From an uncultured Alphaproteobacteria bacterium (GTDB lineage Bacteria > Pseudomonadota > Alphaproteobacteria > Rickettsiales > JALZUV01), in assembly GCA_963837025.1 (NCBI GenBank), contig CAWILT010000002.1:422554-486553 (forward strand): DNA of 64,000 nucleotides, written 5' to 3'. Positions 16,476-63,343 of this stretch are shown here, in pieces; within the stretch, counting starts at the first letter, position 1, and every line of letters starts with the position of its first letter. A program made the position numbers and the translations under genes. The notes beneath the pieces were generated by a model. The model saw nothing but the letters and a program-made list of their open reading frames with translations, was not told where the DNA came from and did not search any database.

Positions 16476-17240
16476 ATGAGCCTAGAGCAGTTTTTAGTCG
16501 GAGAATTATTCGCTTTTCTGCTCATTTTTGTACGTATTGGCTCAGGCATTATGGTAATGCCTGGTATTGGTGAAAGCTACGTAACTACGCGTGTACGCTT
16601 GGCTTTTGCACTTATAGTATCTCTCGCGCTATTGCCCCTGTTAAAACCGATAATGCCACAAATTCCTTCCAGCCCATTCGCTTTGGGGTTACTCATGTTT
16701 GGCGAAGTGGGCGTGGGATTATTTTTTGGCCTAATGGCGCGCGTTATTGTTTCGGCCATGCATACGGTGGGTATGGTAATGTCGTTTCAATCATCGCTTG
16801 CATCAGCAACCATGTTTGATGTGTCGCAGGCCAGCCAAGGTTCTGCTATTGGTAACTTTTTAAGTATTACCGCTGTATTGCTTATTTTTGTCACCGATAT
16901 GCATCATCTAATGTTGCAAGGCTTGGTTGATAGTTACAGCTTATTCATTCCCGGTGCAGCATTTCCGATTGGTGATATGGCCAATAACTATACACGGCTT
17001 GTATCGGACGTCTTTAACGTATCTATCAAGCTAGCATCCCCCCTTATCGCTATGGGGTTAATTCTATATTTAGGCGCTGGTGTTTTGGCGCGCTTAATGC
17101 CTAACATGCAGATATTTTTTGTAATTATTCCATTACAAATTCAGGTGAGTTTTTGGGTCATCATGATCACCATGAGCGGAATGTTCTTATGGTATCTTGA
17201 TTTTGTAGAAGAGCGCTTAAGTGCTTTTTTGGGTGCTTAA
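16476..17240 (+). CDS. fliR: flagellar export apparatus protein FliR
   Basis: 254-aa polytopic membrane protein with FliR-type sequence (F.L.F.RI......MPG.GE). It lies directly after fliQ. Confidence 0.85.
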   Translation: MSLEQFLVGELFAFLLIFVRIGSGIMVMPGIGESYVTTRVRLAFALIVSLALLPLLKPIMPQIPSSPFALGLLMFGEVGVGLFFGLMARVIVSAMHTVGMVMSFQSSLASATMFDVSQASQGSAIGNFLSITAVLLIFVTDMHHLMLQGLVDSYSLFIPGAAFPIGDMANNYTRLVSDVFNVSIKLASPLIAMGLILYLGAGVLARLMPNMQIFFVIIPLQIQVSFWVIMITMSGMFLWYLDFVEERLSAFLGA

Positions 17241-43669: not shown

Positions 43670-44320
43670 TTATTTTGATAAGGTAGATTCGACCGCTGCG
43701 TTTTGCGTGGCTGCTGTAAATTTTGACCAGCTTTGCCCGTCCGCACGACTCGTAGGTTGCGTGTGCTCTGGTTTGGTTGGCGCAAGTTTATCCGCAGCAG
43801 TTTCAATGGGGGAAGGAATAGGCGACGGGACAGAGGATTTATCGCGGGCAATAATGTTGCTTTGCGCTTCGCGGCGATCTTCATCATTTTCGATGCGCTC
43901 TTGTTGTTCGCGCGTTAAATTAGTTTGGATGTTAGCCAAGGCGCTATCGGTTGGTGCAAGGCCAGGATTAACAGGTATATCTTTTGTAGGGGCAATTTGG
44001 CTTCCCTGCATTCCACGCGTGGCACCTTTACCCATTTCAAATTCATCTGCGTAATGCCTTGCTGAAAGTTTGGTCTGACCTGAGCCTACTTTAAGTTTAT
44101 ACTCCTCACGCGTGCTATCGCGTTCAATATAAGAAAAAACAGCGCCTGCCGCTGATGCAGCCCCAGCAATGATGCCTGCAACACCACCAATAATTAATAC
44201 AGAATAAACAGCTACTGCGGCCAGAGCAACAAAGGCAGCACCCCAAAAAATCGCTTCATAACGCAACATGGTGCGTTCGCGGCCTTCGGTTTCTATTTCA
44301 TGTTCTACAGAATGACTCAT
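43670..44320 (-). CDS. hypothetical membrane protein with one Gly/Ala-rich TM hairpin
   Basis: The hydrophobic hairpin [43 protein letters not shown] is followed by a polar, P/S/T-rich tail. The antisense ORF looks like noise. Confidence 0.6.
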
Positions 44321-44410
44321 GATGTCACTATAGGGTATGAATTTTACAGTTTGATGACAACGCGTAACTTTGCTAAAAGAGCGCTAACGATAATTACGAT
44401 AAGAGCAACC

Positions 44411-51731: not shown

Positions 51732-52796
51732 ATGAAAATACTATTTGTAGGTAATAGAAATTTAAAGCATTGCGGTGCTCGATACTATGATTCTGGTACA
51801 AAAATTATTAACGGATTAATCAGAGAAGGTCATAATGTTTATGTGATGTGTGATCGTGACATTGCACGCAACCATAAAATCCTCGGAATTAAATCTTTTG
51901 GAGTGAAATACTGCAATGAATTCTTCCTTAAAACCTGTATAAATTTTAAACCTGATATGGTTTTATTTCACCATGCTGATTTAATAACCATTGAAACTAT
52001 TAAAGAAGCAAAATCAGTTCTTACTCATGCAAAATTTGCGCAGTTTAATGTTGATATAATCTTTAGCCCACATAATATTGAAAATATAAAATCTAAGCTG
52101 CCCTATTTAGATGCTAGCTTTCATACTACGGCGGGAAAAGCACTTAAGGTTTTCTCTGGTTACAGAGCGATTATTAGCTACATTCCTAATCCGGTTGATT
52201 CATCGATAGACACCCCTAAATGCCATGAAAGTTCTAATCAAGAATACGACATATTTTGGGCAATGAGGGTAGGCAAAAGAACATTTAAAGGTGATAAACG
52301 TTTAGAATATCCCTTATTTTTAGAAAAAAATGAATCAGTAAAAATTGATTATTATGGGATGAATGGCAGGCCGCTATTATTTAATGCCGAATATTATCAA
52401 AAAATATCAAATTGTAAAATGGGGTTAAATATTAGCAGCAATAAAACGCTAGACGATAGTGAAGTAGCTAAACCAGAAGACCTATATCTTTACTCATCCG
52501 ACAGAATTTCCCAATATATGGGAAGTGGGCTTTTAACATTTGCATCAAGAGAAAACAGCCTACATGAATTATTTATAGAAGATAAAGAAATAGTATTTTT
52601 TGATTCAAAATATGAATTATTAGATAAAATTATGTATTATAAAAAAAATGATTCTGAACGTAAAAAGATAGCTGCAGCAGGCTGGCAAAAATCGCACACT
52701 CATTTCAACGAAAGGATCATTTCGAAATATATGGTGGAAACCACAATGCAAAAAAAATATAGTGAAAATTATCTTTGGCCAATTGATAAATACTAA
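51732..52796 (+). CDS. CgeB-like glycosyltransferase (Glyco_trans_1_2-type C-terminal domain)
   Basis: The C-terminus (VFFDSKYELLDKIMYYKKNDSERKKIAAAGWQKSHTHFNERI) matches the CgeB/YkvP-type pattern as I remember it. I counted 31 G+C in the first 100 nt. Confidence 0.6.
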   Translation: MKILFVGNRNLKHCGARYYDSGTKIINGLIREGHNVYVMCDRDIARNHKILGIKSFGVKYCNEFFLKTCINFKPDMVLFHHADLITIETIKEAKSVLTHAKFAQFNVDIIFSPHNIENIKSKLPYLDASFHTTAGKALKVFSGYRAIISYIPNPVDSSIDTPKCHESSNQEYDIFWAMRVGKRTFKGDKRLEYPLFLEKNESVKIDYYGMNGRPLLFNAEYYQKISNCKMGLNISSNKTLDDSEVAKPEDLYLYSSDRISQYMGSGLLTFASRENSLHELFIEDKEIVFFDSKYELLDKIMYYKKNDSERKKIAAAGWQKSHTHFNERIISKYMVETTMQKKYSENYLWPIDKY

Positions 52797-53101
52797 AAGC
52801 ATAATATATTATCGTTGCAAAAGGTTACCGATTAAAGAGTAATAATGAGTTAATTTTGGAAGATAATTAATTCTTAGCCAAAGCCATCAAGCGTGCTAAA
52901 TTTTTAATTAATCATCTAATATTAAGATCAAAAAAAACTATGATTTAGCCAATAAAAAAACAGCACAAATAACTAATAAGTTTATATAATCTTAATTTAA
53001 ATGATGTTTCAAAGGTAAATCAATTAAGTGGCTATCATTAATCTGTATCAAAACCGTTTGTGTCTCTGAGAAAAAATAAACTTACTAGAAATACCTAAAA
53101 C

Positions 53102-53176
53102 TGGTGCCACCTACAAGAATCGAACTTGTGACCTCTTCATTACCAATGAAGCGCTCTACCCCTGAGCTAAGGCGGC
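53102..53176 (-). tRNA. tRNA-Thr (anticodon GGT), CCA encoded
   Basis: The reverse complement folds into a cloverleaf: acceptor GCCGCCT/AGGTGGC, D arm GCTC/GAGC, anticodon stem CTTCA/TGAAG with loop TTGGTAA, and T arm ACAAG-TTCGATT-CTTGT. Confidence 0.9.
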
Positions 53177-53189
53177 CGATGTTTAGGGG

Positions 53190-53218
53190 TTCATACAACA
53201 ATGCGGTATAGCTCGCAA
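53190..53218 (-). promoter_or_regulatory. candidate sigma70-type promoter for tRNA-Thr (TTGCGA - 17 nt - TATGAA on the minus strand)
   Basis: The hexamers and spacing were counted by hand. The -10 ends about 13 nt upstream of the mature tRNA 5' end. Confidence 0.35.
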
Positions 53219-57120: not shown

Positions 57121-57828
57121 ATGCACATTATGGCTCAGCACTATACCCATGCACGCGATGCATTTAACGGATTACTCCATGATAATATTACCCTTATGTC
57201 GGGCGGCTTTGGCCTATGCGGCATCGCCGAAAATGCCATTGAGCAAATACGCGATTCGGGTATCAAAAACCTCACCGTAATCAGCAATAATTGCGGCGTG
57301 GACGATTTTGGACTTGGCCTTTTACTGCGAAATAAGCAAATTAAAAAGATGATTTCATCCTATGTGGGCGAGAATAAAGAGTTTGAACGTCAATATCTTA
57401 GCGGCGAATTAGAATTGGAATTTAACCCGCAAGGCACATTAGCCGAACGTATCCGCGCGGGCGGCGCAGGCATTCCCGCTTTTTATACGAAAACGGGCGT
57501 AGGCACTATCGTTGCCGAAGGCAAAGAAACCCGCGAATTTGACGGCGAAACCTATGTGATGGAACGCGCCCTAACGGCCGATATCGCCATTGTCAAAGCA
57601 TGGAAAGCTGATAGTGCCGGCAATGTAATTTTTCGCAAAACGGCACGCAATTTTAACCCCCTTATGGCTAAAGCCGCTAAAGTGAGTGTGGTGGAAGTAG
57701 AAGAGATTGTGCCCGCTGGCCAGCTTGATGCCGATGCTATTCATTTGCCCAGCATCTATGTGCAGCGTTTTTTCCAAGGTGAAAATTACGAAAAACGCAT
57801 CGAATTTCGCACCGTTACCGCTGCCTAA
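57121..57828 (+). CDS. scoA: 3-oxoacid CoA-transferase subunit A
   Basis: Typical subunit A sequence ([16 protein letters not shown]....GLG.LL...[46 protein letters not shown]). Confidence 0.9.
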
Positions 57829-57831
57829 ATA

Positions 57832-57872
57832 AACACAAAAACAAAGGCCGCCTCCCAACGGGAGACGACCTT
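57832..57872 (-). terminator. cassette 1 terminator (rho-independent, minus-strand orientation)
   Basis: Minus-strand RNA AAGGUCGUCUCCC-GUU-GGGAGGCGGCCUU forms a 13-bp stem including 2 G-U pairs, followed by UGUUUUUGUG. On the plus strand the same positions would be C-A mismatches. Confidence 0.8.
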
Positions 57873-57897
57873 GCTATAAACACCCTACACTAAATTT

Positions 57898-58296
57898 TTA
57901 CGAGTTTGTCAGACTCGTAAACTCTTCTTCAAGCTGCTTAAGCACCTCAAAGTCGCTTTCTTCGCGACTTTGATTGATGAGTGCCAAGGCATCAAGTAGT
58001 GCCACAAAAACTTCAGCCTCCTCAAGAGAAAAAAGTTTTTCGGTGGTTTTATTTTTAGCAACAGATTTTTCAATCTTAATTACTAAAATTTGCCCACCGA
58101 TGTTACGCGCATTGATGACAATTTCGCTGTTAGAAGTTTTGACATGCACCCAAGCGCTTGCCAAAATCGCTTCAAACGCAATGATTTCACCAGTAATGGC
58201 AGTGCTTGCGTTCGTTTTGCTGCGAATAAAAAGCGTATTATCGTTACGCGATACGGAAAGGCGCTGGATGGCCTCTCGAATGGATTTGCTCAACAT
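57898..58296 (-). CDS. cassette 1 ORF, hypothetical protein (132 aa)
   Basis: The ORF is bracketed by a conserved promoter/leader and a terminator. It has no Shine-Dalgarno sequence and I recognise no family. Confidence 0.7.
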   Translation of the reverse strand: MLSKSIREAIQRLSVSRNDNTLFIRSKTNASTAITGEIIAFEAILASAWVHVKTSNSEIVINARNIGGQILVIKIEKSVAKNKTTEKLFSLEEAEVFVALLDALALINQSREESDFEVLKQLEEEFTSLTNS

Positions 58297-58453
58297 TTTT
58301 TATGTTTTAGCGGTGAAAGAATGCACCAGAATGGTGCGAGAAAATTTCTATCCTTATCAAAGATTACAGAGTCAAAATTAGCCCGCGCTAATGTGAATGT
58401 GTGACGGCAAAATTGCTGTGTAACCTAAAAAAAGAGGTAAGAAATATTCGCTC

Positions 58454-58487
58454 ACTATACCCCCAAATCATGACAGTTTGATGACAT
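58454..58487 (-). promoter_or_regulatory. Pho-box-type promoter of cassette 1
   Basis: Minus strand reads ATGTCAT-CAAA-CTGTCAT-gatttggggg-TATAGT: two direct TGTCAT repeats 11 bp apart, 10 nt upstream of a -10 hexamer. Confidence 0.65.
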
Positions 58488-58502
58488 AGGCGCTGAAAAT
58501 TG

Positions 58503-58540
58503 AATAAAAATAAAGGCCGCCTCCCAACGGGAGACGACCT
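58503..58540 (-). terminator. cassette 2 terminator
   Basis: Same hairpin as cassette 1 (aggccgcctccc-aac-gggagacgacct on plus), followed on the minus strand by UUAUUUUUAUU. Confidence 0.8.
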
Positions 58541-58565
58541 AAATTTAATGCAGCAAAGCTTGCTG

Positions 58566-59102
58566 TTACCAAGCGTTTCCTTTGATTCGCTTTATCACAA
58601 ACTTTGAGGAGCGTGCTCCACAAAATTCGTTGATGTGGCTGTCATCGGCCTCGGGTGTCAACAGAGACATCTGCTGCAGCAATTGTCGTAGCCAAGTGGT
58701 CTTGGCGGCGGCCTGCTGCGTCAGCTTGGTGGAATATTCCACGCGCGGATCTTTTCGCTCTTTGGAGGCGTTACACTCTTTGAGCGCGCGAAACAACACC
58801 CAAACGAAGTCATCGTAATGCTTCGGGGTAATGTTGCGCACAAAGTGAGTGCCCTCGCCTTCTAAGCAAAAGCATATGTGCTCATCTTTAGGACAAAAGG
58901 TGATTTTCATCACCTTATCCCAATTGCTTCGAATGGTGAGGAAGCCATGCGCTGGCTTGTAATCCTCATCATGCGAAATAACACCGTATAGGCGCCAGTT
59001 GGCAAGCTTTGAGTCTACCTTAATCCCGTCCCCATTATCGGTTACGGTTGCGCTTACTTGGGCATACTTTGCCAAGTCGCGCAGTAATTGGAAATCGATC
59101 AT
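58566..59102 (-). CDS. cassette 2 ORF, hypothetical protein (178 aa from the ATG at 59102; the ORF track extends to a GTG at 59156)
   Basis: The ATG at 59102 gives an N-terminus (MIDFQLLRDLAKYAQ) that aligns with the cassette 5 N-terminus (MVDEAQLRELFKNAW). It also gives a leader of about 150 nt, like the other cassettes. Confidence 0.7.
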   Translation of the reverse strand: MIDFQLLRDLAKYAQVSATVTDNGDGIKVDSKLANWRLYGVISHDEDYKPAHGFLTIRSNWDKVMKITFCPKDEHICFCLEGEGTHFVRNITPKHYDDFVWVLFRALKECNASKERKDPRVEYSTKLTQQAAAKTTWLRQLLQQMSLLTPEADDSHINEFCGARSSKFVIKRIKGNAW

Positions 59103-59259
59103 GTGATTCGATTTAAAAAGTGACAATCTCCAAAACGGAAAATTGTAATTTCTCACCTCCCATTCTACATCACCTTAATAAAAAGATGAGCGTCAAGCGT
59201 GTGAATTTAAATGACGGCAAAATGCTGTAAAACCAAAATTGAGGTAAGAAATATGCAAT

Positions 59260-59293
59260 CACTATAATGCGCGTTGATGACAGTTTCATGACA
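59260..59293 (-). promoter_or_regulatory. Pho-box-type promoter of cassette 2
   Basis: Minus strand reads CTGTCAT-GAAA-CTGTCAT-caacgcgcat-TATAGT. Confidence 0.65.
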
Positions 59294-59300
59294 GCACCAC

Positions 59301-59337
59301 ATAAAAGCAAAGGCCGCCCCCCAACGGGAGACGGCCT
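59301..59337 (-). terminator. cassette 3 terminator
   Basis: Hairpin aaggccgcccccc-aac-gggagacggcctt on the plus strand, which forms G-U pairs only in the minus-strand RNA. The U-tract is weaker (CUUUUAU). Confidence 0.65.
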
Positions 59338-59345
59338 TGCAAAAT

Positions 59346-59768
59346 TTACCGAAAGAGCAGATGTAGCCCGTTTCGCTGTAACGCATTGGCGAGCAGAAGC
59401 CCCTCCAACACCACCTCACGATCATATGATCCGAGATGATTTTGGTTGAATTCCACTTCCGCAATCCAGCGACCAAGTCGGTGGCAGAAGTTGGCTGTTG
59501 GTGCGGTCACCTTGAGCTTAGCTTTAGCATCCGCCGCAAGTAATGCGGGGTTTTCGGATACCTGTAGCTCAGCCACAAGGGTTGTCTCGTCCTTCTCACG
59601 CACCTGAAACCAAACGCCTTGCAGCGTATTGTCAGGTGCGTAAGTGGCGCGTCCGTGAACTTGCGACTTTCTGCCACCAACCACTTTAAAAGTGATAGTG
59701 GATTGTGTCGCTTCATCTAGCCTTTCGGCGATGATCCCATTAAGGAGCATCTTTACCTTATCTTCCAT
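59346..59768 (-). CDS. cassette 3 ORF, hypothetical protein (140 aa)
   Basis: The ORF is bracketed by a conserved promoter/leader and a terminator. It has no Shine-Dalgarno sequence and I recognise no family. Confidence 0.7.
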   Translation of the reverse strand: MEDKVKMLLNGIIAERLDEATQSTITFKVVGGRKSQVHGRATYAPDNTLQGVWFQVREKDETTLVAELQVSENPALLAADAKAKLKVTAPTANFCHRLGRWIAEVEFNQNHLGSYDREVVLEGLLLANALQRNGLHLLFR

Positions 59769-59911
59769 GCTGGAGATTTTTTAGGTGATTTAAAAAAAAG
59801 GGTGAATTTTTCTACCAGTACAGTTTCGCGACCGTTAAGGAGCGTCTTTGAAATGAGGGACGTCGCATCCAAAAAGCGGCGTAAAACTATAAAAGTAAGA
59901 AATATGCCATC

Positions 59912-59945
59912 ACTATAACCACACATGATGACAGTTTAATGACAA
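59912..59945 (-). promoter_or_regulatory. Pho-box-type promoter of cassette 3
   Basis: Minus strand reads TTGTCAT-TAAA-CTGTCAT-catgtgtggt-TATAGT. Confidence 0.65.
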
Positions 59946-59979
59946 AAAAAGCCGCTCTCCCCAAAAGGAAGAACGGCTT
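59945..59979 (-). terminator. cassette 4 terminator
   Basis: Hairpin aagccgctctccc...ggaagaacggctt. On the minus strand it is followed by a U7 run that continues directly into the next Pho box. Confidence 0.75.
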
Positions 59980-60000
59980 AATGTTTGGCACTGCTAGGCG

Positions 60001-60411
60001 CTACGGCAGCGACAGAATATAAAGCGTGCCAACAGGAATTTCTTCCTTTAACACCGCTTTAATTTCCCGCTCGCATGCCCGCAAAATGCTAGCAAAATTA
60101 TTTCGGCTGAGCATCTGCTCATCAACCGGAAGGCTAACGATGCGGTTGGCACTTCGCGCCTTCGCGGTGATGATCAACCCAGCCGTCGTTTCGGTGGCAT
60201 CAACGGTCACCGTCAAATGCGTGTAACCCGGCTGCTCAATCACCAAACGAATTTTGTTCGTTTGGTTTTCGCAAAAGTCAGCTGTTCCCGTCATCGTGTA
60301 GTCACGGTGCTTGCTAATGCATTGCATTAGGTTAGGCATCGTTTTGCGATACGTGCCCTTATTCTTATAGGTCGCTTGCAACAGCAGCTCCCTAATTACT
60401 GAAAAAGTCAT
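60001..60411 (-). CDS. cassette 4 ORF, hypothetical protein (136 aa)
   Basis: The ORF is bracketed by a conserved promoter/leader and a terminator. It has no Shine-Dalgarno sequence and I recognise no family. Confidence 0.7.
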   Translation of the reverse strand: MTFSVIRELLLQATYKNKGTYRKTMPNLMQCISKHRDYTMTGTADFCENQTNKIRLVIEQPGYTHLTVTVDATETTAGLIITAKARSANRIVSLPVDEQMLSRNNFASILRACEREIKAVLKEEIPVGTLYILSLP

Positions 60412-60564
60412 GCTTATATATTTTAAGCATTAAAGAAATCAACATACCAAGCGCGGCATGAGGGTAGCAGTTACCACAAATCAACCCATTTGCATGAGGT
60501 GAATAAATAGAGGTGACAGCGAAAAAAGCTGTAAAACCAAAAGAAAGGTAAAAGATACCCGCAG

Positions 60565-60598
60565 ACTATAGCGCCCAATCATGACAGTTTGATGACAA
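60565..60598 (-). promoter_or_regulatory. Pho-box-type promoter of cassette 4
   Basis: Minus strand reads TTGTCAT-CAAA-CTGTCAT-gattgggcgc-TATAGT. Confidence 0.65.
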
Positions 60599-60631
60599 AA
60601 AAAGTCGCCCTCCCCGCAAGGGAAGGACGAC
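60598..60631 (-). terminator. cassette 5 terminator
   Basis: Hairpin agtcgccctcccc-gcaa-ggggaaggacgact-like, a 13-bp stem with 2 G-U pairs in the minus-strand RNA, followed by a U7 run that continues into the next Pho box. Confidence 0.75.
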
Positions 60632-60646
60632 TGAGTTAAAACCTAT

Positions 60647-61099
60647 TCACCAAGGTCCAAGCGCATAGATGCTTGGGGCATCCAGCACGTTTACATGCGC
60701 ATAGTGATGCTGCATTAAACGTGATAGCTTCGCGCCTTGCTCTAGTAGCTCTGGCGAGAAACTTCCTAAGCAATCAGCTTCCAAAATCGCCTTGCGGATT
60801 AGGCTTGAAAGCTGGCTAACCTCACTTTTATATAAGTAAAGTTCGCACTTCGCAAAGGCTCCCGTAAAGAAACATTTGTGAATTTCCTTGGTCGAAGGCA
60901 GCATCACGAAACGTAACTCTCGTTGCTTTCCTTCGAAAATGGAAATGTCGAAAAAGGAGACTAGCTCATTTTCGAACACAGCCAGTACTTCCAGTCTCCA
61001 TGAGAGGTAGCTGGACTTGAAGATGACAAGATTGCCACCTTCAACCGGTGAATGCCACGCGTTTTTGAACAGTTCGCGCAACTGAGCTTCATCAACCAT
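60647..61099 (-). CDS. cassette 5 ORF, hypothetical protein (150 aa)
   Basis: The ORF lies between a conserved promoter/leader and a terminator. It shows weak N-terminal and central similarity to the cassette 2 protein. Confidence 0.7.
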   Translation of the reverse strand: MVDEAQLRELFKNAWHSPVEGGNLVIFKSSYLSWRLEVLAVFENELVSFFDISIFEGKQRELRFVMLPSTKEIHKCFFTGAFAKCELYLYKSEVSQLSSLIRKAILEADCLGSFSPELLEQGAKLSRLMQHHYAHVNVLDAPSIYALGPW

Positions 61100-61257
61100 T
61101 ATTTTTAGGTATAGAAGTGATACAACATACCAGAAATGGCATGAGGGCTATCTTAACTTATACAATCAAGCACACAAGCGAAGTTGGCGTTGAGTGAAAA
61201 TGTGACTGCGAAAAACGCGGTGAAACCTGAAAAAATAAAGGTAAGAAATACTCAAAC

Positions 61258-61291
61258 ACTATAACTGCATTTGATGACAGTTTTATGACAG
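61258..61291 (-). promoter_or_regulatory. Pho-box-type promoter of cassette 5 (overlaps the stop codon of the upstream methyltransferase gene)
   Basis: Minus strand reads CTGTCAT-AAAA-CTGTCAT-caaatgcagt-TATAGT. The TAA stop of the 686-aa ORF (61283-61285) lies inside the box. Confidence 0.65.
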
Positions 61292-63343
61292 CGGCTTTTT
61301 TAACCAAAATTGATACATGGATTTAAACGTATCGGGGTTTTGTTGTTCATAAGCATGCCATTTTATAAGGTAATCAGGATGATTGGGCGGGGGTAATGTG
61401 GCCTCAAACGCTTCCAACTCTGCGCGGTGCATGAGGTTGATGCCACAAAATTCCAATCCTAAATCACTCACAATTTTCCCAATTTGCGGCCACGTGAATT
61501 GATGTTCCTGAACATGAAAAATTAAATCACGACATTCCGAAAGCGAAAAGAAATCGGTTGCAGCATAGAGATCGGAAATGATGGGAGTCAGCGCATTATC
61601 GGCACCCGTTTGTTGCCGCTGAAATTCATAATTTCGTTGCATCAATTCGCGGCGATAGTGGCGCAACGCATCATCCGAATCGCCTAAGTTGCGCGCTTTA
61701 ATCTCCTCGCGCGCGAGCGTCACACTGCGTCGCGCCATTTGGCTGTAAAGGCCAATGCGCATCATACCACCTGGTTTTAAAATATCGGTAAGCACCTTCC
61801 AGCCGGCGATGGGGTCGCGCATGTGATGCAGCACGCCCACGCTTTCAATCATATCAAATGTGCGGTTAAGTGCGAGTAATTTTAAAATATCGGCCTGCAT
61901 AAATGTGAGTTGGTCACAGCCATATTGCTCGGCCTTGCGTTGTGCGTAAGCCAAACTGGAAAGGCTAATATCAACCGCTAATAACGCACTTTTACAAAGC
62001 GATGCGGCAAGCATGATGGGGTGCTGCCCCGTGCCGCAACCCGCAATCAACACCTCGCCCTGTTTAGGTAAAGTTGAGCTAATAATTTCAGGCTTAACAC
62101 CAAAACGCGCCACATATTCAGGCAGTGAAATGGGCGTGTAATCGGGCACCTCATTCCAACGCGGGTAGGGCGCGGATTCATATTGTTCGCGCACTTTTTG
62201 GCTGGTGGCATCGTCAATTTCATCCAAGCGCGGCAAGCTCAATTTGCGCTTTTGTTCATCTTGCGGGTTATGGCATTGCTGTTCAATAATGCGTTTTAAA
62301 ATAGCATCATCTGGCTGCCATTGTGCTAGCTGCGGCGCGCAATCTTCCTGCGCTAAAGGGGTATAACTGCCCAATAATGTGAGTGCATCATTATCAATTT
62401 TAGGTAAGCTTGCCACCAGTTTTACGCGCAAAGGTTTTAATGCTGCAGCTTCTTCTGCCTCCGTAAAAAATACATATTCATTATTAAATCCGAGTGAGCA
62501 AAGCGCCCATTGCAAAGGTTGAAACGGCGCACGAGCAGCGGCATCACATTCCAGCAATAAATGCCGGCGAATTTGGGTGAGCAATAGCTCTAATATTGGC
62601 TGAGTAATCGAATCGCGATGCATCAGCGGCAGCAAAAGCGATTGTTGAAATTGCTGCAAAAAGCCATCCTGTTTAATCAGCTTTCGCATGGCGATAATCA
62701 GGTCGCTATAATGCTCAATTGATGCCAGCTTATTGCATTCTACCATCCACGGCGCAGCGTGTTGATGGCGAATAATTGCCGCGCGAATGCCGTTCATAAG
62801 ACCGGTTTTTAATGCCTCTTTTAGCACCGGTTCCAATTTTAATTCCACCTCATAAAATGCGTCCATTAAATAGGTAACGCGTTTATAATTTTCCCATACG
62901 GCTTCTTCCTGCGGCGAAATTAAAAACATTTGCACTGCAAAGGGCAGGGCTGCTTTTTTATCACCAGCAATTAAATGCAAACGACACGCGCGAGCAAAAG
63001 GCGGCTGCCAATCCGGCTTTAGCGTGGCAGCGCGTGTGTAAGATTGTAGCGCATCTTTGTTCGCGCCTGAATATTCTTGCGCTAAACCCAAATGATAATG
63101 CGCCGATTCATGTCGCATATTTAACATTACAGCCTGTTGAAATCGCGCAATCGCATCAGGGTAATCTTGCAACTGTAGCGCCGCAAGTGCTAAGCCAAAA
63201 TAAACACCAAATTCCGTATGACCCTGCGCCAATAAATGCGCAAATAATTCGCGCGCTTCGCCAAATTTGCCGTGCTGTAACCAACTATCAGCTTGCTTAA
63301 ATTGCTTTTGAAATTGTTTTGTCTGATTCATAAATACGAGCAT
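61283..63343 (-). CDS. TPR-repeat protein fused to a class I SAM-dependent methyltransferase
   Basis: N-terminal TPR-like repeats (about 34-aa A/L/Y pattern). The C-terminus has motif I VLIAGCGTGQ, post-I LAVDIS, and DMIESVGVLHHM...LKPGG. An alternative start is at 63331. Confidence 0.8.
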   Translation of the reverse strand: MLVFMNQTKQFQKQFKQADSWLQHGKFGEARELFAHLLAQGHTEFGVYFGLALAALQLQDYPDAIARFQQAVMLNMRHESAHYHLGLAQEYSGANKDALQSYTRAATLKPDWQPPFARACRLHLIAGDKKAALPFAVQMFLISPQEEAVWENYKRVTYLMDAFYEVELKLEPVLKEALKTGLMNGIRAAIIRHQHAAPWMVECNKLASIEHYSDLIIAMRKLIKQDGFLQQFQQSLLLPLMHRDSITQPILELLLTQIRRHLLLECDAAARAPFQPLQWALCSLGFNNEYVFFTEAEEAAALKPLRVKLVASLPKIDNDALTLLGSYTPLAQEDCAPQLAQWQPDDAILKRIIEQQCHNPQDEQKRKLSLPRLDEIDDATSQKVREQYESAPYPRWNEVPDYTPISLPEYVARFGVKPEIISSTLPKQGEVLIAGCGTGQHPIMLAASLCKSALLAVDISLSSLAYAQRKAEQYGCDQLTFMQADILKLLALNRTFDMIESVGVLHHMRDPIAGWKVLTDILKPGGMMRIGLYSQMARRSVTLAREEIKARNLGDSDDALRHYRRELMQRNYEFQRQQTGADNALTPIISDLYAATDFFSLSECRDLIFHVQEHQFTWPQIGKIVSDLGLEFCGINLMHRAELEAFEATLPPPNHPDYLIKWHAYEQQNPDTFKSMYQFWLKKPLS

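Follow-up and report, generated by a model that had tools for sequence, protein, structure and literature searches.

We analyzed a 64,000-nucleotide (nt) stretch of DNA from an uncultured alphaproteobacterium (contig CAWILT010000002.1 of assembly GCA_963837025.1, positions 422,554 to 486,553), called the window below and numbered from its first letter. Near one of its ends, five small genes stand head to tail on the minus strand. Each of the five open reading frames (ORFs), O1 to O5, encodes 132-178 amino acids (aa) and forms a cassette with a promoter that carries a Pho box, a 5' leader and an intrinsic terminator, and five monocistronic units are predicted. An earlier reading, made from the sequence alone, had placed this feature at 58297-61263, but the array is wider, 57837-61291 (Table 1).

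Layout of the array and its promoters

The cassettes follow one another at a regular pitch of 807, 651, 653 and 693 nt, and the leader, measured from the -10 hexamer to the ORF, is regular as well, at 149-164 nt in all five. The chance that each specific frame of O1-O5 stayed open was 4e-5 to 5e-4, and the codon score was above zero in frame 0 alone; for these two reasons the ORFs look like genuine coding frames. Searches for relatives of the encoded proteins found very little. O1 and O5 matched only themselves in a search of 5.8 billion protein clusters, O2 matched only itself when 1.84 billion representative proteins were searched in full with HMMER, and O3 and O4 had no match in plasmids (by tblastn for O3), these searches being weaker than those for O1, O2 and O5. 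At 90% identity each of the proteins is a singleton, none of the five has a significant match in Pfam, NCBIfam, PADLOC or PHROG, and a PDB search with a profile of the five returned nothing. On inspection, the five translations showed neither an obvious signal peptide nor a C-terminal signal in common, and the proteins are probably cytoplasmic. Their isoelectric points are non-uniform, from 5.3 to 9.1; the idea that they resemble type III secretion system chaperones was dropped because these values are not uniformly acidic.

The motif TGTCATnAAACTGTCAT is present exactly five times, against a chance expectation of 0.05. In all five promoters the layout is Pho box, 10 nt, TATAGT, 7 nt and TAT(T/C)T(C/T)TTAC, and the pattern made up of the -10 hexamer and the leader start has five exact copies where 0.13 would be expected by chance. 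The sequence-only reading had assigned a Pho box, a -10 and a common leader start to each module between the ORFs, and the five copies bear this out at fixed spacing. In Escherichia coli pho promoters, the box stands in for the -35 element, about 10 nt ahead of the -10 hexamer; the array boxes obey this positional rule, the spacer to TATAGT being exactly 10 nt in 5/5. The motif also fits the published definition of the Pho box, two CTGTCAT direct repeats 4 nt apart that give 11-nt repeat units (PMC4415409). Two of the five boxes, those of promoters 2 and 5, fit the full 18-nt consensus with zero mismatches. A possible second Pho half-site in the leader (GCTGTCAC) was dropped, as by eye it has no partner repeat at 11-nt spacing.

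We also surveyed the Proteobacteria, one genome per species, for the box followed by TATAGT. The combination was found at 59 other loci, with one match per locus, which means that the genome of the array is not in the surveyed set, and the 10 downstream genes that were scanned included genes for five PstS-type binding proteins (PBP_like_2 matches), one phoB-like regulator, two porins and one DUF2610 protein. Judged by its sequence, then, the array promoter is a generic PhoB promoter, ordinary hardware of the regulon. It resembles the proteobacterial promoters of pstS, phoA and phoB in its CTGTCAT repeats, its 11-nt periodicity, the replacement of the -35 element and the 10-nt distance to the -10. 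It differs from them in that 3.4 kb contains five such promoters in a row, which drive orphan proteins instead of phosphate-acquisition genes, and in that the conserved structured leader is absent from the other Pho promoters examined.

Behind each ORF lies a strong intrinsic terminator whose stem of 12-14 bp is followed by a T-run. The earlier claim that every module contains a terminator stands for four intergenic modules but not for the one upstream of O5; the fifth terminator is the one behind O1. Around T1, the 35 nt at 57837-57871 match the surroundings of T2 with one mismatch. At the other end of the array, the first half of Pho box 5 consists of the last codons and the stop (CTG TCA TAA; 61283-61291, minus strand) of the upstream TPR-methyltransferase gene. 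Because no terminator separates the two genes, read-through from that gene into O5 is possible.

Table 1. Positions of the array elements and of a sixth predicted regulon member in the window (P1, long-range stem of the leader)
Feature	Coordinates	Strand	Remarks
Array of five cassettes	57837-61291	minus	all features on the minus strand
Pho boxes	58470-86, 59277-93, 59928-44, 60581-97, 61274-90	minus	exact TGTCATnAAACTGTCAT
T1 (type A), after O1	57844..57872	minus	13-bp stem, 8 G-C pairs, T-run
O1	57898..58296	minus	132-aa orphan ORF; genome-typical codon usage
Leader 1	58297..58447	minus	start near 58447; P1 arms 58435-58445 (5') and 58344-58354 (3'); second hairpin 58323-58337
Promoter 1	58454..58486	minus	Pho box 58470-58486, 10-nt spacer, TATAGT 58454-58459
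T2 (type A), after O2	58514..58540	minus	
O2	58566..59102	minus	178-aa orphan ORF; weak similarity to O5
Leader 2	59103..59254	minus	P1 arms 59241-59252 (5') and 59148-59159 (3'); 12 consecutive pairs
Promoter 2	59261..59293	minus	perfect Pho box CTGTCATGAAACTGTCAT and TATAGT
T3 (type A), after O3	59310..59338	minus	
O3	59346..59768	minus	140-aa orphan ORF
Leader 3	59769..59905	minus	P1 arms 59894-59902 (5') and 59809-59816 (3')
Promoter 3	59912..59944	minus	Pho box 59928-59944, TATAGT 59912-59917
T4 (type B), after O4	59949..59979	minus	
O4	60001..60411	minus	136-aa orphan ORF
Leader 4	60412..60558	minus	P1 arms 60547-60558 (5') and 60464-60475 (3'); second hairpin 60443-60460
Promoter 4	60565..60597	minus	Pho box 60581-60597, TATAGT 60565-60570
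T5 (type B), after O5	60603..60632	minus	
O5	60647..61099	minus	150-aa orphan ORF
Leader 5	61100..61251	minus	P1 arms 61237-61246 (5') and 61151-61161 (3'); second hairpin within 61123-61147
Promoter 5	61258..61290	minus	perfect Pho box CTGTCATAAAACTGTCAT (61274-61291) and TATAGT
Sixth predicted regulon member (promoter and O6)	43670..44359	minus	216 aa; outside the array; Pho box 44343-44359, TATAGT 44327-44332

A long-range stem at the predicted 5' end of the leaders

The transcript start was taken as the purine 7 nt after the -10 hexamer (A, A, A, G and G in the five copies), and the predicted transcripts begin with (A/G)UAUUUCUUACC. Folding of the leaders predicts, in 5/5, a stem between the first ~14 nt and a GGURAGAAAU-like box located around nt 84-107, and this stem, P1, closes an RNA domain of ~100 nt at the predicted 5' end. 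Both the minimum-energy and the centroid structure of every leader contain P1, which sets in within nt 1-6 of the predicted transcript. Between nt 1-14 and nt 70-115, 5.6-11.7 pairs were expected in the five leaders, as opposed to 0.65-1.35 with shuffled tails, and 0-1% of the tail shuffles attained the observed pairing. For 58 natural Pho-promoter transcripts of other genomes the median was 0.18, and 3/58 reached 5.6. In leader 4, a U-to-C change in the 5' arm is offset by a G in the 3' arm, which makes one compensatory C-G pair. Misaligned 3' halves of the leaders in a MAFFT alignment caused RNAalifold to overlook the long-range stem, and the conserved complementary arm on the 3' side had been missed by the sequence-only reading as well. 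This predicted 5'-terminal long-range stem is the new finding presented here.

Conservation in the leader is limited to its 5' half and the 3' arm of P1. Beyond the P1 domain comes a second hairpin, which reads GCACC...GGUGC in leader 1; in leaders 4 and 5 it reads CAUGCC...GGUAUG and corresponds to the motif that the sequence-only reading had noted for cassettes 4 and 5. In leaders 1 and 4 the hairpin with its U-rich tract scored as terminator-like. No Shine-Dalgarno sequence was recognizable in the A/U-rich start regions after the second hairpins; by inspection, such sequences look weak or absent before many other genes of the window too. Among the covariance models of Rfam 15, the best scores were 24-25 bits against a 40-bit threshold, and these fell on the terminators, not on the leaders. 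Neither of the leader motifs has a copy outside the array within the window, the leader sequence is absent from all 59 other proteobacterial Pho loci, and a scan for the pattern of -10 and leader start yielded nothing in viral contigs and, in JGI metagenomes, two matches put down to chance. Within the window and the collections scanned, the leader thus appears to be specific to the array. It had been argued earlier that the array would be less special if the same module stood before ordinary genes throughout the genome; the promoter part does occur at ordinary Pho genes of other Proteobacteria, but the leader part does not. We rejected a repeat of the type of miniature inverted-repeat transposable elements, because the leader motifs have no dispersed copies in the window and the homology runs past the arms into the promoter and the terminator.

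What the P1 domain might do is suggested by work on mRNA decay, in which 5' secondary structure stabilizes mRNA, and RppH and RNase E require single-stranded 5' ends (PMC3997798). Because these enzymes need a free end, mRNA stabilization is the simplest reading of the predicted domain and its most likely role. The array leader would then be like the 5' stabilizer stem-loops of ompA and papA in that pairing starts 0-5 nt from the predicted 5' end; those, however, are simple hairpins, whereas the array stem joins distant segments around a ~100-nt domain, with both the transcript start and the stabilization predicted only. It is also possible that the P1 domain acts as an attenuator or a switch. 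Riboswitch leaders similarly have a ~100-nt domain closed by P1 and then a U-tailed hairpin upstream of the start codon, but the array leader differs from them in that only the 5' half and the 3' arm of P1 are conserved, with no Rfam match and no candidate ligand. A more ambitious proposal is that the leader is an undescribed cis-regulatory RNA, which would add a second input (a ligand, a protein or a small RNA) to the control by PhoB and would gate lineage-specific, fast-evolving orphan proteins for interactions with a host or with competitors under phosphate starvation. We consider this proposal quite improbable.

A U-rich segment of leader 5 immediately past the 5' arm (61231-61242) is 92% complementary over 12 nt to the region that includes the start codon of O5 (61095-61106), and this pairing competes with the long-range stem in the full-length fold. 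Sequestration of the start codon was discounted as a general device, as by inspection the other four leaders give weak A/U pairing.

Conserved control DNA, diverged proteins and the origin of the array

The sequence-only reading had noted that the inter-ORF modules can be aligned while the coding DNA has diverged past recognition, and both statements hold when quantified. The modules aligned pairwise at z-scores of 17-38 above shuffles, over about 140 nt, whereas the five coding sequences aligned at z-scores of -1.3 to +1.3 against codon-shuffled controls. In a fixed register, the mean pairwise identity of the copies was 0.95 for the Pho box, 1.00 for the -10 hexamer and 0.86 for the transcript start and 5' leader arm; it was 0.43 for the 10-nt spacer, 0.46 for the 7-nt discriminator and 0.28 for the 12 nt upstream of the box. 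Conservation is therefore confined to functional motifs, and the other module positions are close to random. Because even the unconstrained non-coding positions of the modules are near random, the copies look old.

The proteins had been described as unalignable except for a weak match between O2 and O5, and this description was confirmed. O2 and O5 gave a Smith-Waterman z-score of 4.2 (p about 0.0025), are collinear from residue 1 and both end in G-x-W; O3-O5 was marginal (3.3), and the remaining pairs were null. A profile of O2 and O5 scored O4 above all shuffles, but this match was weak (4.5 bits) and non-collinear, and we discounted it as a sign of relatedness. At residue 6 or 7, O1, O2, O4 and O5 carry the motif [IL]R[ED][AL][ILFA], which is found in 0/336 control N-termini and whose arginine codons differ (CGA, CGC, AGG and CGC). 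The motif previously seen near the start codons of cassettes 4 and 5 (CCCTCATGCC...TGGTATGTTG) is real, with 60440-64 and 61123-47 being 80% identical. Such leader extras and the terminator subtype yield one and the same grouping of the cassettes, {4,5} vs {1,2,3}.

We favour, with moderate confidence, the explanation that the array represents five old tandem copies of one whole transcription unit under purifying selection at the level of motifs. The ancestral unit would have comprised a Pho box promoter, a structured 5' leader, a small ORF and an intrinsic terminator. Under phosphate limitation, phosphorylated PhoB would bind the pair of 11-nt repeat units found in place of a -35 element and would bring RNA polymerase to the TATAGT -10, with transcription starting at the purine 7 nt downstream. 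The 5' nucleotides of the transcript would then pair with the GGURAGAAAU-like box ~90 nt further on, and the resulting ~100-nt domain would most likely shield the 5' end from RppH and RNase E and may, in addition, act as a gate on translation at the A/U-rich start region. Each unit would end at its own terminator, giving independent expression under a common signal. Purifying selection would retain the short cis-acting motifs only while neutral positions randomize, and the proteins would drift past detectable similarity, save for the N-terminal helix motif and the O2-O5 pair.

Two models had been offered earlier, tandem duplication followed by very fast diversification of the proteins and the swapping of unrelated ORFs between conserved flanks. 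Of these, duplication with subsequent divergence fares better, because the pitch and the leader length are regular and the ORFs are similar in size. It is favoured further by the matching {4,5}/{1,2,3} grouping of leaders and terminators, by the O2-O5 similarity and by the N-terminal motif. The very fast diversification, however, is neither shown nor needed: since the unconstrained spacers are also near random, an old duplication of whole cassettes fits the data, and exceptional protein evolution is unnecessary.

Several observations weigh against old tandem duplication, or against how firmly it can be held. Since the leaders are paralogous to one another, the structure common to them does not amount to five independent observations. 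Third codon positions are peculiar in O2-O5, with a G+C content (GC3) of 0.51-0.59 compared with 0.41 +/- 0.065 for 39 window genes and a G content (G3) of 0.27-0.37 compared with 0.15 in rpsA. These G-rich third positions are not seen in the 39 other window genes, in O1 or in O6, and the pattern differs from that of the highly expressed rpsA. Such a bias is unexpected for old resident paralogues and hints that the ORFs were replaced or are of foreign origin. The N-terminal motif is missing from O3 and was chosen post hoc, and an unbiased N-terminal score test gave p = 0.034. The protein similarity between O2 and O5 conflicts with the grouping of the flanks, {4,5} vs {1,2,3}. Neither phoB nor phoR was found among the scanned ORFs of the 64-kb window. 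Finally, single-sequence AlphaFold2 models were unreliable, with a predicted local distance difference test score (pLDDT) of 35 for O5 (secondary structure H-EEEE-HHH) and of 51 for O4 (HH-EEEEE-HH). Both of these low-confidence models consist of a helix, a beta meander and then helices, and the O4 model, at pLDDT 51, had no significant fold match in the PDB.

One alternative is that a conserved control module captured unrelated ORFs, some of them foreign, which were inserted or exchanged by recombination. The atypical codon usage of O2-O5 beside the genome-typical O1 would agree with such replacement, as would four of five proteins being mutually unalignable and coding DNA with z-scores about 0; the match of the T1 and T2 surroundings over 35 nt with one mismatch suggests some exchange. 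Beyond T1/T2, however, the conserved tracts are short (for example, the 17-nt Pho box) and look like poor recombination substrates, and no homologue that could have served as donor was found for O1, O2 or O5. Uniform ORF length, leader length and cassette pitch argue against replacement as well, as does an N-terminal peptide motif common to four ORFs that is written with varied arginine codons. As there are no attC-like sites, and neither an integrase nor a transposase was found among the scanned ORFs, the earlier suggestion that ORFs were swapped between recombining flanks is not supported, and we regard replacement as unlikely. The array does resemble integron arrays in having small, unrelated ORFs of the same orientation split by a repeat with an imperfect inverted repeat. 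It differs in lacking attC core sites, with no integrase among the scanned ORFs, and in giving each cassette its own promoter and terminator. The integron model was rejected, because no RYYYAAC...GTTRRRY pair is present in 57800-61400 and the few GTTRRRY sites lie off the boundaries.

More doubtful is the reading of the array as a set of diversifying effector, immunity or interaction proteins that evolve fast under positive selection, with low phosphate as the signal of the niche. Effector sets can be defined by a regulon, in which a shared regulatory signal stands before dissimilar small proteins. The array resembles such sets; its proteins are orphans in tandem, and the window contains an export-family gene (FliR/YscT). 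Yet no toxin, secretion-system or immunity family lies in or beside the array, and searches of Pfam, NCBIfam, PADLOC and PHROG revealed nothing to link it to the effector or immunity systems it had been likened to before. The absence, on inspection, of an obvious signal peptide or common C-terminal signal and the non-uniform isoelectric points (5.3 to 9.1) also tell against this reading, and the randomized neutral sites already account for the divergence without positive selection. The surface lipoprotein loci vlp and vsp of Mycoplasma consist of tandem genes with conserved upstream regions and first codons and with divergent bodies. The array is like them in its tandem genes, conserved upstream regions and divergent coding bodies, but it has no lipoprotein signal peptide, internal repeats or phase-variable tract, and it shares short motifs instead of long, near-identical blocks.

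Least probable is the notion that the ~105-130-nt leaders are themselves the products, as PhoB-induced small RNAs or attenuated transcripts, and that the ORFs are incidental or decaying: the leaders are indeed conserved and structured, those of cassettes 1 and 4 have a terminator-like hairpin and U-rich tract after P1, and O2-O5 have low codon-usage scores, but five intact ORFs of 132-178 codons exactly fill the space from leader to terminator, chance would rarely leave each of them open (4e-5 to 5e-4) with a positive coding score in frame 0 alone, an N-terminal motif is kept at the protein level while its arginine codon varies, and the leader hairpins, with 6-bp stems, are weak as terminators.

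Taken as old tandem copies, the cassettes show short cis-regulatory motifs outlasting the genes they serve: a transcription factor site, a -10, an RNA stem and a terminator survive, and the proteins do not. Post-transcriptional control on top of the Pho regulon is a testable proposal for the conserved leader. Practical value is limited, as the data come from one genome and are predictions throughout.

Other predicted Pho genes and the surroundings of the array

A sixth predicted regulon member, O6, lies outside the array. Its Pho box is weaker (two mismatches), and its ATG follows 7 nt past the -10, with no conserved leader; because the ATG stands exactly at this distance, the O6 mRNA is predicted to be leaderless. 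Residues 26-55 of O6 are hydrophobic and by inspection a likely membrane helix, and its codon usage is typical of the genome. All of the strong Pho boxes in the 64 kb (6/6) drive proteins of unassigned function, which indicates that a sizeable part of the predicted phosphate-starvation response of this sparsely sampled bacterium consists of proteins without known relatives. In the survey of other genomes, small DUF2610 proteins (MKRFTVPCDFNG...) were found behind a perfect Pho box and TATAGT at eight loci of alphaproteobacterial metagenome-assembled genomes (L016, L022, L033, L040, L047, L049, L051 and L054). From these sequences, DUF2610 may be a Pho regulon member that those lineages have conserved.

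The array is flanked by the TPR-methyltransferase gene upstream and by a CoA-transferase gene at its other end, in a window of chromosomal housekeeping genes (ftsQAZ, ddl, lpxC, carAB, ligA, recN, rpsA, recQ, addA-like and trpA). The gene content, with an AddA-type nuclease, DUF2336 and a long FtsZ, points to an alphaproteobacterium. Sequencing run ERR12040027 contains identical DNA, and the array proteins are on record for an NCBI contig of 876,849 bp. The CoA-transferase gene encodes subunit A (57121-57828, plus strand), has no adjacent gene for subunit B, and converges on the array, running into T1. The FliR/YscT export-family gene (Bac_export_1; 16476-17240, plus strand), which implies that a flagellar or type III export component is present in the organism, adjoins a 678-aa ORF without a Pfam match. 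Finally, a low-GC stretch at 52000-53200 (0.29-0.33 vs 0.45 overall) covers the end of a glycosyltransferase gene (51732-52796) and stops at a tRNA-Thr gene (53102-53176).

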